Origin: Escherichia coli
GTDB taxonomy: Bacteria > Pseudomonadota > Gammaproteobacteria > Enterobacterales > Enterobacteriaceae
Assembly (NCBI RefSeq): GCF_013315695.1
Contig: NZ_CP054353.1
Direction: 5' to 3' (one strand)
Length of the DNA: 64,000 bases
The position numbers and the translations under genes were made by a program. Position 1 is the first letter of the stretch, and each line of letters starts with the position of its first letter. Of the stretch, positions 21,830 to 63,210 are shown one piece after another. The notes below the pieces were generated by a model, which saw nothing but the letters and a program-made list of their open reading frames with translations, made no database searches and was not told the DNA's origin.

Positions 21830-22924
21830 ATGGGAAACCGCTTAACGCTTTCTCGCGAAGGCCGCAGCAATCTTGAGGCCTATCTTGCACGCCAGGCAGA
21901 ACTGGCCGAAACCACCGTAGAACGACTGGGGAAAACCTTCAGCGTTGATCCGGCTGTTCATCAGAAGATGGAAAACGCCATCAAAGAGAGCGACGAGCTG
22001 CTGAAAAGAATCAACAGCATCGGAGTTGACGATCAGGAGGGTGAAAAAGTCCTGGTGAATACCAGCGGCCCCATCGCCAGCACCAACTCAACCAGTGACG
22101 GCGTGAAGCGACGCAATCCAGCTGACGTCTCTGATCTGGCATCACGTCGTTATCGCTGCGAACAGGTGAACTACGACACTTTCATCAGCTACGCACAGAT
22201 TGACGCGTGGAGCAGCCAGAAAAACTTCCAGCAACTGCTGAGTGCACAAATCACCCGACAGATTGCACTGGACCGTATCATGATTGGCTTTAACGGTGAG
22301 TCGCACGCCCTCATCTCCGATCGTTCTGCCAACCAGAAACTTCAGGACGTTAACACCGGGTGGCTGAAACACATCCGTGAACACGCCGCGACGCGTGTCG
22401 TGAAGGCAATGACGCTGACCCGTCGCGATCATGAAAACAAACTGGTTGCAAAAGGCGACTACGGCAACGCTGACGCGATGGTTAACGACATTCGCTCTTC
22501 CGTACTGGATGAGTGGCACAAGGACGCCCCGGATCTGGTTGTTGTCATGGGCCGCAACCTGTTCAACACGCTGCGTCTGCCTATGATTAACGCCATCAGC
22601 ACCACCAACCCGAACACGGAGCTGGTCGCTGGACAGCTGATTACAGCCTCCCGCACCATTGGCGCGCTGCCAACCTTCTTTGCGCCGTACTTCCCGGACG
22701 ATGCCATGCTGATCACGTCGTTCAGCAACCTTTCGGTGTACTTCCAGAAAGGGTCACTGCGTCGCTTCATCCGTGAAGAGCCGGAGTACAACCGCATCGC
22801 CACCTACCAGTCCATGAACGACTGCTACGTGGTGGAAGACTACGGCAAATGTGCGCTGATTGAGGGTATTTCTTTCGCCGGTGAAGATCCGGAAGACAAG
22901 GAAGAGCCAGAAGAACGGGCGTAA
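21830..22924 (+). CDS. major capsid protein, P2 gpN-like
   Basis: 364 aa; C-terminal region matches recalled P2 N (YFPDDAMLITSFSNLSVYF, YVVEDYG). Confidence 0.88.
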   Translation: MGNRLTLSREGRSNLEAYLARQAELAETTVERLGKTFSVDPAVHQKMENAIKESDELLKRINSIGVDDQEGEKVLVNTSGPIASTNSTSDGVKRRNPADVSDLASRRYRCEQVNYDTFISYAQIDAWSSQKNFQQLLSAQITRQIALDRIMIGFNGESHALISDRSANQKLQDVNTGWLKHIREHAATRVVKAMTLTRRDHENKLVAKGDYGNADAMVNDIRSSVLDEWHKDAPDLVVVMGRNLFNTLRLPMINAISTTNPNTELVAGQLITASRTIGALPTFFAPYFPDDAMLITSFSNLSVYFQKGSLRRFIREEPEYNRIATYQSMNDCYVVEDYGKCALIEGISFAGEDPEDKEEPEERA

Positions 22925-58228: not shown

Positions 58229-58238
58229 CGCATTTTAT

Positions 58239-58318
58239 CTGCCTGTACGGCAGTGAACGGTATAAAAATCGAGTTTTTCTTTCGGTTGGCTTTCTAAGCT
58301 GCCTGTACGGCAGTGAAC
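58239..58318. repeat. two copies of a 20-bp hairpin-forming motif (ctgcctgtacggcagtgaac) 60 bp apart
   Basis: Exact direct repeat in the serW-clpA intergenic region, each able to fold (ctgcc-tgtac-ggcag). Confidence 0.6.
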
Positions 58319-61157: not shown

Positions 61158-61779
61158 TGTCAGTTATCATCTTCGGTTACGGTTATCGGCAGAACGCCCT
61201 GCCGCTGACAAGAGCTTATTTGCCTGACCAATCTACTCCACATGATAGATAACTATCATTTATAACATCTCATTGATTAGTCTTTATTTTTCATTGTGTT
61301 ACAAATAACAGCTCTGTCAAAAACAGCGAAATTAACTACACCATTAACTACACCGTTTCACGAACAATATCGAACAACCACGAACAAAGATCAACACGCT
61401 TTAACCGTTATCATTTTCCGGCTATCCGTTATGAAGCTGGTGGATGTTCCCCGATATGGGGATCCCCACCTACCGGAATTTTTGCCAGGTTAAATGTTAA
61501 CCTCTGCCCTGTTAACATTTTTACCAAAAAGGTAGTTAACATTTTTTGCACGCAACCAGATGAATCATAAAGAAAAAATCAACAACAACGCTTCATCAGG
61601 CAGTTAACATGTTAACTACTACGAAACGGTAATTTTTTCTCTGCGTGAGAGGGGGCGCGGTGTCCAGCTTATTCGTTGTTCGTGGCTAACCACTCCCCCC
61701 CCATGCCGGATTTTTTTTCCGGTTAACTGTTAATCAGGCTGGTGGGTTTTACATACCCTTGATCACCGTAATGATGATC

Positions 61780-62000
61780 CAGATCTGCACATTTCCACCA
61801 ATGGTGGAAAAGCCCACAGCAGGCCGCCCAGCCTCCACCAATGGGGTAAAAGCATCAACCGTAACGAAAGTCGTTATGGTTGCCACCGATACCCCAAATT
61901 TGGGTATCACGAGTAAGCCCCAAAATCTGGGTGTTACTCTTACCACCCAAACTACGGGTAGTTTCCGTAGTTTCATGGTCGAGTTGCAGATCTGCAACTC
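61780..62000. promoter_or_regulatory. cluster of palindromic motifs (ccaccaatggtgg x2, acccaaatttgggt-like x3, tgcagatctgca)
   Basis: Several near-perfect 12-16 bp palindromes within 220 bp; the overlapping ORFs look non-coding. Confidence 0.35.
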
Positions 62001-62293
62001 CCCCATTAACCACAGGCGAATTTCCGCCTTCGGTCATTCCTTAATCATCTGCGTAATCATAATGATTATTCAGCAAGCGCAATTTTGCGCTTTGCTTAAA
62101 GTTCAGCGAGTTACCGCGCCGACTTCCTCAAATTGAGGTTTCCGAAAATATCAGCGGGTTAGCGATTAAGCTGATCATTAATTAAACTGCGAAAATTTCG
62201 TAGTTTGTGACTGTCTTTCAGGCAGCTTGTTAACAGTCCTCAGAAGCGAGGGATGTAGCCACCCATTTTTGGTCCGTCGGGAATATCAACCAG

Positions 62294-62575
62294 TTACCGC
62301 CGCAACCGCTCCGGCTTCTTCCAGTGGTACGTTATTTTCTCCTTCTCCCGATACATCTCCACGCGGCGACGGTAGGCCAGCAACTCAAGAACTCTGGTTC
62401 GTATGTTGCGCATATCCACGCCATTAAGTTCTATACCATCACGGCGCATCACCTCCGCAACAACACGCGCATAATTTTCAGCGGTCACGCTGTCCGGCTG
62501 CGTGGCCTGTTCGTCAACCTGCTGGCTGATTCCGGCAACGCGGCGGATTAATCCCAGTATTTCGGCTTCTGTCAT
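62294..62575 (-). CDS. hypothetical protein (93 aa, MTEAEILGLIRRVAGISQQVDEQ...)
   Basis: ATG-initiated ORF with protein-like composition; my hand count places the ATG one base from the ORF-track start. Confidence 0.45.
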   Translation of the reverse strand: MTEAEILGLIRRVAGISQQVDEQATQPDSVTAENYARVVAEVMRRDGIELNGVDMRNIRTRVLELLAYRRRVEMYREKEKITYHWKKPERLRR

Positions 62576-62610
62576 TGTGCCCCCATCGTTCTGATAGTCT
62601 GGTGTCGTCG

Positions 62611-63210
62611 GGTCCTTCCTGGAATTATGGCCCGTTACGGGGCGGCGACCTCGCGGTTTTTCGCTATTTATGAGATTTTTTGAGGGGGTGGTTGTTGTTT
62701 AATTGTTTGGTATATCTAATTGATAAGTAAGGTAAAAATAAAATAAATACAACAACCTTACGATGTATTTTGATGTCATTAATGTGAAAAAATTCAATGA
62801 TATCAAATGGTTTTGTAAAAACACATGGTTGTTGTATCGCGTATTTGATGGCGTAACAGAAAGTGATTTTTAACTTTACCGCTCTGTAACTACGGATTAT
62901 TCCATGCTGGCACGGAGAACGGCTACGGCATGACGCCACCCAGCCTATACAGCACAGTAAAGCCGATAAATTGTTAATCACGCGCAGCAATGCGTGTGAT
63001 TTTTGCACACTTCCGGTTAACGGGTACGATGTCCGGTTTTAGTGTCTGTTTTTTGCGCATGTCCGGTTCATAGAAAGCATGTTTTTATATTTTTCATATG
63101 GTTAACTTGCAGAGAAACCGGACATGGATCCCGGAAAATTTTCATAAATAGTGAAAACGCGCGAGGTCGCCGCCCCGTAACGGGTCCATATGCCGGAAAG
63201 GACCCGTAAA
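62611..63210. repeat. ~50-bp imperfect inverted repeats (25-bp perfect core cccgttacggggcggcgacctcgcg / cgcgaggtcgccgccccgtaacggg) flanking a ~500-bp AT-rich segment
   Basis: Left arm 62611-62660, right arm 63157-63210 in reverse complement; interior holds atgtccggtt repeats and no convincing ORF. Confidence 0.7.

Follow-up and report, generated by a model that had tools for sequence, protein, structure and literature searches.

The 64,000-nt stretch of Escherichia coli DNA analyzed here (contig NZ_CP054353.1; hereafter the window) contains a dense cluster of short palindromes at 61780-62000. This cluster is part of the non-coding tail, approximately 550-850 bp long, of a phage-inducible chromosomal island (PICI) of the EcCICFT073 type. 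The tail is non-coding, cassette-built, and hairpin-rich, and it contains captured phage fragments together with an oriented family of ~48-nt units in which a match to the consensus of integration host factor (IHF) is followed by a stem-loop. This repeat unit is previously undescribed. EcCICFT073-type PICIs serve as a model for satellite hijacking of phage packaging, and no description of their last ~0.5-0.9 kb, the tail tract, was found in the searchable PICI literature. We tentatively read the tail as an IHF-bent, hairpin-forming barrier or stabilizer at the end of the late operon, resembling bacterial interspersed mosaic elements (BIMEs), and assign this analysis-based reading a probability of about 0.45.

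The repeat units form an array at 62075..62299 on the minus strand, which is also the strand of the adjacent gene, and run from the stop codon of that gene onward. The gene (62575..62294, minus) is the last conserved gene of the island and encodes a 93-amino-acid (aa) protein of PHROG 1561. In all islands compared, the hairpin tail begins at its stop codon. The C-terminus of the protein, KKPERLRR, is almost invariant, and its last codons belong to the first repeat unit. Read on the gene strand, a unit consists of YAA-N4-YTGATW, then about 10 nt, then a stem-loop. The linear motif is the reverse complement of the IHF consensus WATCAR-N4-TTR and has an A-rich 5' flank. In the window, the IHF-type site at 62284-62296 overlaps the stop codon and has a weak hairpin, the site at 62149-62161 is followed by the stem-loop 62126-62138, and a degenerate site at 62101-62113 is followed by the stem-loop 62075-62092. 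These units lie just outside 61780-62000, the interval to which the sequence-only reading of this DNA had assigned the cluster.

Tails were compared across 80 IMG/VR loci retrieved through the 93-aa gene, in addition to E. coli genome and plasmid copies; about 70 copies were read. The IHF consensus occurs 54 times in 13 kb of distinct alleles, always in one orientation and never in the other, where chance would give about 0.4 matches per strand. Over the whole window, eight matches are found on both strands, two of them in the tail. Hairpins most commonly start 23 nt past the start of the motif (28 of 87 hairpin-bearing units), with nine more of the 87 starting at 22 nt. Seventeen distinct hairpins retain this position; their dyad centers lie 28-30.5 nt from the motif start, most of them at 29-30 nt. 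About 10 different stem sequences are represented among them, including CCTCAA/TTGAGG, CGCAA/TTGCG, GTGCA/TGCAC, CCCCCA/TGGGGG, CAGCC/GGCTG, TTCGCC/GGCGAA, GCTCA/TGAGC, and TTCCACAG/CTGTGGAA. Structure and geometry are therefore kept, and sequence is not. Near-identical islands carry between 1 and 6 units, and the prototype EcCICFT073 has the same kind of tail. Among 100,044 species-representative genomes, the unit pattern gave only 14 scattered, chance-like matches. This near-absence indicates a family private to these islands, and it appears restricted to PICIs of E. coli and Shigella. The coupling of an oriented IHF-type site with a covarying hairpin deserves the attention of specialists, as does the presence of three cos sites belonging to two types, described below.

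The closest known counterparts are repetitive extragenic palindromes (REPs) and BIMEs. These palindromes lie 3' of genes, bind IHF, act as terminators, mRNA stabilizers, or topological insulators, and vary in tandem number among strains; a REP is a 30-40-nt imperfect palindrome with a y, z1, or z2 consensus and a conserved 5' GTAG (PMC3333891). BIME-1 (RIP/RIB) consists of two REPs around an IHF-binding linker. The tail shares with these elements the clustering of short palindromes downstream of genes, the mosaic of a few cassette types with linkers, the strain-variable tandem copy number, the strong hairpin potential without a U-tract, and an IHF-type site inside the unit, which in the tail is predicted from the consensus WATCAR-N4-TTA found in every unit. 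Its hairpins differ, being 12-25 nt long with about 10 unrelated stems and no GTAG rule. In contrast to BIMEs, where REP and inverted REP (iREP) alternate with defined linkers between them, 54 of 54 units share one orientation and each hairpin is self-contained. Whereas REPs occur in hundreds of chromosomal copies, the tail is confined to one phage-satellite lineage. Because the REP consensus with its GTAG, the alternating orientation, and the dispersed copies are all missing, the tail is an analogue of the REP/BIME-1 mosaic and not a member of it.

A second resemblance concerns the nut sites (boxA-boxB) of lambdoid phages, in which a conserved linear motif is followed at a fixed distance by a hairpin of variable stem. 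The tail units have the same layout of linear motif and variable-stem hairpin. Unlike nut sites, they stand at the 3' end of an operon, have loops of 0-4 nt, are often perfectly palindromic, and show neither a boxA-like sequence nor a strand bias.

In the BIME-like scenario, IHF would bend the DNA at each unit, and the palindromes would fold into hairpins, either in the late transcript or in DNA that is transiently unwound. The tail would give the late operon a structured, untranslated end that blocks or stabilizes transcript 3' ends, and it would insulate the end of the island that carries cos and the attachment (att) site. It may also be a recombination-prone zone that gains new cassettes and helper cos sites. 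If IHF binding and the shaping of late transcripts or of cos/att are real, the units would be a compact cis-element that could affect island expression, transfer, and the engineering of PICI-based delivery vectors.

Several observations weigh against this scenario. The 54 IHF-type sites are related copies and not independent events, and IHF binding is predicted from the consensus alone. The tail cassettes do not match REP consensus sequences. The tract contains no intrinsic-terminator-like site. Folding energy shows no strand bias (of 28 alleles, 13 fold more stably as the sense strand), and the mismatches in imperfect hairpins, G.T 8 versus A.C 8, give no strand signal. With no bias in folding energy or mismatches, nothing points to a one-strand RNA. 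Many palindromes are perfect through the center, with spacers of 0-2 nt, and such symmetry is more typical of double-stranded DNA than of RNA hairpins. Finally, among 16 variants of the main palindrome cassette of the tail (123 bp; see below), covariation did not exceed that of shuffle controls and amounted to a single double-change pair.

Comparison among islands defines the architecture of the tail. The DNA between the 93-aa gene and a conserved terminal core ranges from 200 to 740 bp. Its blocks are present, absent, duplicated, or reordered among islands whose 93-aa proteins are 84-100% identical. The tail is a mosaic of short cassettes and not one control region. Part of 61740-62060 is matched in 940 of 5426 complete E. 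coli genomes, at a median of one place per genome and in PICI context only. The most widely shared block is the 123-bp palindrome cassette (61883..62005), which has sharp borders and accounts for most of the 220 bp originally singled out. It comprises GATACC-N9-GGTATC, a GAGTAAGCCCCA...TGGGTGTTACTC hairpin, AAACTAC..GTAGTTT with a 9-nt tandem duplication, and the perfect 20-mer GAGTTGCAGATCTGCAACTC. Depending on the island, its neighbors are an Abi gene, a truncated prophage terL, or fis. The 16 variants keep the arms of three palindromes nearly invariant and vary at the centers. The single double change, from G-C to A-T, lies in the 20-mer, and a one-sided intermediate is present. The cassette is also present in an E. 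coli record deposited as a circular 'plasmid' of 10,790 bp (NZ_CP148328.1, L207). This record is an excised PICI of the same family, with a primase, a ClpP-capsid fusion, DUF1441, the 93-aa gene, the 123-bp cassette, and an att arm.

The 20-mer, with wobble variants, also occurs inside KilA-N genes of lambdoid prophages, which supplied 100 of 120 IMG/VR matches (e.g., L087 2514-3311). There it encodes S/T-ELQICNS with free wobble positions, and no flanking similarity is found. This recurrence is probably a coincidence. It is odd that two palindromes of the tail recur in genes of the 'Bro network'.

Beside the 123-bp cassette lie pieces of other origin. A 45-nt fragment of a Rha-family regulator gene (61789..61833, plus; codons TFPPMVEKPTAGRPA) has a 44-nt match to the Rha genes of ~108-kb SSU5-like phage-plasmids (L206 1201-1244). 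All seven differences fall at synonymous third positions. The perfect palindrome at 61792-61810 corresponds to the Rha codons F-P-P-M-V-E-K, and the same 19-nt palindrome is found inside those coding genes. The fragment is also the first copy of a 40-nt repeat, whose second copy starts at 61834 and is out of frame. In a plasmid search with the tract, the Rha fragment was the sole match besides PICI copies. A GC-rich hairpin cassette, AGGCGAATTTCCGCCTTCGGT, follows at 62010..62035; in other islands it stands at the opposite flank of the 123-bp cassette. The tail is no junk-like random sequence. It contains a repeat family private to the satellites, and helper-derived cos sites and gene fragments accumulate in it.

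Alternatively, the tail may be a recombination scar or capture zone without a selected function of its own, where fragments are left by illegitimate and homologous exchange with helper phages and sister islands and the palindromes are passengers or by-products. A cos cassette between 30-bp direct repeats, the synonymous-only differences of the Rha fragment, the duplications of 40 nt and 9 nt, and the changed order of cassettes all fit this explanation. Chi sites flank the tract in active orientation, and the adjoining cos-flanked segment is inverted between near-identical islands. However, a scar leaves unexplained the strong self-complementarity of non-homologous alleles, as well as the oriented IHF consensus and the near-constant hairpin distance despite changing stems. 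For 11 of the 15 relatives examined, several non-homologous alleles among them, self-complementarity gave z values between -3.4 and -8.2; the window's own tract gave -11.3, and coding controls gave about -1. Folding of 61740-62300 against dinucleotide shuffles gave z = -9.2 and -8.6, one value per strand. We consider a functionless capture zone unlikely; with an accessory packaging role (see below), it is one of the two main rivals of the BIME-like reading. If the units do mark a capture zone, they would bear on how satellites change helpers.

A variant of this idea assigns the zone an active role. The units and palindrome cassettes might be recognition modules for a structure-specific protein, and the tail, which already has its three cos sites, an active platform for capturing and swapping helper packaging signals and not a passive BIME-like spacer. 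The protein could be a helper terminase/HNH complex, a nuclease that binds junctions or hairpins, or the 93-aa protein, which is always adjacent. We judge this proposal quite improbable.

The inventory of palindromes extends beyond what was first noticed. All palindromes that the sequence-only reading had listed for 61780-62000 are present, and this interval has the highest short-palindrome density in the window. In a scan of 1276 sliding 221-bp windows over the 64 kb, scored by the summed arm length of perfect palindromes, its score was reached by only two windows, both overlapping the tail tract. The eleven top-scoring windows all fall within 61401-62271. The cluster is wider than reported and spans about 61450-62300. 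To its left, it continues with TGGGGATCCCCA (61457-61468) and AGTTAACATGTTAACT (about 61601-61616). To its right, TAATCATaATGATTA (62054-62068), AAGCGCAAttTTGCGCTT (62075-62092, the stem-loop of the degenerate unit), and CCTCAAaTTGAGG (62126-62138) carry the palindromes to about 62140.

Within the interval itself, the first of two palindromes described as ccaccaatgg-type, TTTCCACCAaTGGTGGAAA (61792-61810), is perfect with 9-bp arms, whereas the second, TCCACCAATGGGGTA (61834-61848), is a degenerate copy 40 nt further on and only approximately palindromic. Three palindromes of acccaaatttgggt type had likewise been reported. In the first, GATACCCCAAaTTTGGGTATC (61888-61908), positions 61893-61904 form a perfect core, CCCAAATTTGGG. 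The other two, which start at 61918 (CCCCAAAATCTGGGT) and 61945 (ACCCAAACTACGGGT), are weaker copies at 27-bp spacing; they are only approximate palindromes in the window and are not kept as palindromes in the divergent relative L004. The perfect palindrome TGCAGATCTGCA was confirmed as the center of the 20-mer at 61981-62000. Two further perfect palindromes had escaped the first list, namely TAACGAaagTCGTTA (61862-61876) and AAACTACggGTAGTTT (61949-61964). The loop of TAACGAaagTCGTTA differs among relatives, reading AAG, AAA, TGT, or TGA on the plus strand. GATC stands at the center of several palindromes.

These data bear on the original proposal, in which the cluster is a bank of operators bound by a single dimeric regulator whose gene lies elsewhere in the island or in the helper. 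Several palindromes are perfect to the center, and the three cassette palindromes have conserved arms and variable centers (as in GATACC-N9-GGTATC), as half-sites would. Yet about nine unrelated palindromes share no common half-site, and the cassettes that carry them are optional and shuffled. No repeated palindromic consensus was found; each of the two reported types has one good member, and its other copies are degenerate. The tract comes after the last gene and thus ends the operon on its 3' side, and its surroundings offer a single promoter-like match, which is weak and putative (61748-61775). The product of the adjacent gene, as modeled, has no DNA-binding fold. The operator proposal is not supported, and we judge it highly improbable.

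The 93-aa protein was itself considered as a DNA-binding regulator and rejected. Its family is narrow (36 clusters at 50% identity). The AlphaFold2 model is all-helical, with a predicted local distance difference test (pLDDT) score of 76, and searches returned no PDB sequence or fold match and no match to a DNA-binding fold. Consensus sequences for integron attC, Ter/Tus, the DnaA box, the LexA box, and an intrinsic terminator were lacking from the tract by scan or inspection. The cluster lies 300-500 bp downstream of the 93-aa gene, between that gene and the end of the island that carries cos, Chi, and attL. The statement that no nearby gene explains the cluster is only half right, since the tract always follows the 93-aa gene and lies between cos sites.

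The view that the overlapping open reading frames (ORFs) are non-coding held up. None of the five ORFs has a Pfam or PHROG match. The 125-aa plus-strand ORF, compared with 5.8 billion proteins, retrieved no more than scattered E. coli calls labeled 'hypothetical', which have the conserved cassette in common and differ in their flanks. The minus-frame ORF annotated by the Prokaryotic Genome Annotation Pipeline (PGAP) is interrupted by a stop codon in the divergent copy L004, and other copies lack its start. A tblastn search of both cassette frames against 50,697 phages yielded nothing credible. As a point of annotation, the PGAP 'hypothetical protein' within the cluster is very probably not a gene.

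A structured non-coding RNA has also been weighed, either as a rightward antisense RNA starting at 61748-61775 or as a small RNA within the 123-bp cassette. The starting point would be a weak sigma-70-like promoter, TTTACA-16-AATGAT (61748-61775, part of 61748..61786, plus), a putative site from a consensus scan that points into the palindromes. Three GATC (Dam) sites at 61761, 61776, and 61782 overlap it at the left edge of the cluster. This arrangement, the strong predicted structure, and the conservation of the cassette speak for an RNA. On the other hand, Rfam gave no match in the tract at E<=1 when 57.5-64 kb was scanned, and a terminator, strand asymmetry, and cassette covariation are equally missing. 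An RNA product is very unlikely.

The surroundings of the tract are dominated by packaging signals. The cluster at 61780-62000 showed no phage similarity and does not qualify as a cos site itself, whereas three neighboring sites do. The first, at 61492..61668 (minus), is of the HNH-dependent lambdoid type and is 79% identical to the HNH-terS gap of phages YYZ-2008 and BP-4795 and of many Stx phages. Over a core of 37 bp (61631-61667) it matches the phage sequence exactly, and its terminase side carries four to five GTTAACAT boxes, at about 61490-61620. This site apparently was captured from a helper phage. It forms a 233-bp piece flanked by ~30-bp direct repeats at 61474-61503 and 61707-61736, and most relatives lack it.

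The other two sites are of lambda type. A cosQ-cosN at 62609..62652 (plus) has its cosN, GGGCGGCGACCT, at 62641-62652. An inverted cosN-cosQ at 63165..63200 (minus) has its cosN at 63176-63165 and ATGTCCGGTT repeats to its left. The two copies face each other, and relatives carry a Nu1-like terS or rpp between them; in the window, only AT-rich DNA is found there, with no rpp or terS. A cos-flanked segment with rppA is inverted, at 99.4% identity, between CFT073 and WP4-S17-ESBL-08 (L224 2529-3340 versus L208), as if the inverted cos repeats mediate inversion of the segment between them. With three cos sites of two types, a single satellite has cos sequences for two different packaging systems.

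This setting suggests that the tract could be accessory packaging DNA that aids the helper terminase at the adjoining cos for example by shaping the nucleoprotein complex or by slowing the motor ahead of the terminal cut. The tract lies between cos sites, with a lambda-type site ~350 bp to the right and, on the left, the HNH-type site at a distance of ~120 bp. The classical host factor acting at lambda cosB is IHF (PMC9026076), and the conserved core repeats the GTTAAC boxes seen in the helper-type cos. Lambda cosB, with its R sites and IHF site I1, and the cos1/cos2 sites of EcCICFT073 resemble the tail in having IHF-type sites and short repeats close to cosN. The packaging system of EcCICFT073 comprises cos1/cos2 and Rpp-TerS, and the island in the window likewise has two lambda-like cosQ-cosN copies. 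Unlike cosB, however, the tail lies beyond the 93-aa gene and not between cosN and the terminase gene, and it has palindromes rather than R-type direct sites.

The tail is also independent of the cos sites present. The tract is unchanged with or without the inverted lambda-type cos, a terS or rpp gene, or the HNH-type cos, and it lies nearer to or farther from cos by hundreds of bp in different islands. Of 50,697 phage records, none has a similar tract beside its cos. EcCICFT073 loses transfer when only its two cos sites are deleted (PMC6092414), so the tract is unlikely to be a packaging site in its own right. An accessory role in packaging is unlikely.

The suggestion that the cluster is a replication origin did not survive. 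The island origin consists of 11 TGCGGGTTA iterons around an AT-rich stretch, located 3' of the DUF927 primase gene (22332-22646 in the complete island copy L001), about 4.5 kb from the palindrome cluster and outside the window. This arrangement agrees with the PICI origins described previously, in which two sets of iterons, bound by the initiator that the island itself encodes, flank an AT-rich stretch located 3' of pri-rep (Fillol-Salom 2018, PMC6092414). The tail resembles the PICI origin and the P4 ori/crr only in being non-coding satellite DNA with dense short repeats. One iteron-like AGCGGGTTA at 62154, and the unit motif (A/G)CGGGTTA, which is similar to TGCGGGTTA, are compatible with an origin or with a second, P4-crr-like iteron cluster. 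Against this, the units do not follow the iteron type. They are the same in islands with GGTGAACAG-type or CCTCTACC-type iterons, on which ground the iteron/crr hypothesis was rejected. The probability that the tail is an origin or a crr-like element is close to negligible.

Sister islands use other iterons, of CTGTTCACC or CCTCTACC type (L118, L163, L201, L207). Iterons of the CTGTTCACC type contain TGTTCACC, which we take to be the P4 type I iteron. In UMNF18 (L209 1460-1650), a terL-carrying island of the capsid-forming type has an ori-like TGCGGGTTA cluster with an AT-rich stretch beyond the palindrome tail. This cluster may represent a tandem or remnant second island.

At the outer end of the tail, the island is bounded by its att site. 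The attL core, ATAACTATCAT, is located at 61249..61259, and the island extends rightward from it past the end of the window; the same 11-mer is found at the integrase end of L001. Two arm-type repeats, ATTAACTACACC, at 61331-61354 recur at the other arm. The conserved terminal core (61697..61752, plus) is 87-100% identical in nearly all relatives, even where the flanks differ; its elements are a CCGGA-T8-TCCGG hairpin, a GTTAACnGTTAA box, and the Chi site GCTGGTGG at 61738-61745. The window has Chi sites at 61436 and 61738 (plus). The one at 61738, inside this most conserved terminal block, is oriented for RecBCD entering from the cos side. The 11.2-kb island (L001 17100-28300) contains 11 Chi sites, about one per kb.

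The host island is known in full from L001, the copy in strain CEA601S. It is 99.9% identical and forms an ~11-kb island between clpS and yljB/cspD. Its genes, all on the minus strand, encode an integrase, a helix-turn-helix (HTH) protein, an Icd-like protein, DUF4222, a DUF927 primase, SSB, PerC, the major capsid protein, a head decoration protein, a 137-aa protein, and the 93-aa protein. Assignment to the PICIs is based on the integrase, the alpA-type HTH protein, the primase with its origin, the capsid and decoration homologues, the lambda-like cos, the size of ~11 kb, and a specific att site. The CFT073 island has the same layout and the same capsid (c1499), decoration (c1500), 137-aa, and 93-aa genes, with a similar tail before phoQ. 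Its 144-aa protein matches RppC in the PDB (E = 5e-31), and RppA was confirmed against PDB 6hlk; the copy in the window is without rpp. Depending on the island type, the 93-aa gene follows terS, terL, or cos. Toward its end, the window carries infA, tRNA-Ser, clpA, and clpS, followed by the foreign DNA. Between tRNA-Ser and clpA lie two type I-F CRISPR repeats (58231-58258 and 58291-58318, minus), assigned to Rfam CRISPR-DR4 with 50 and 30 bits, which resemble a remnant mini-array.

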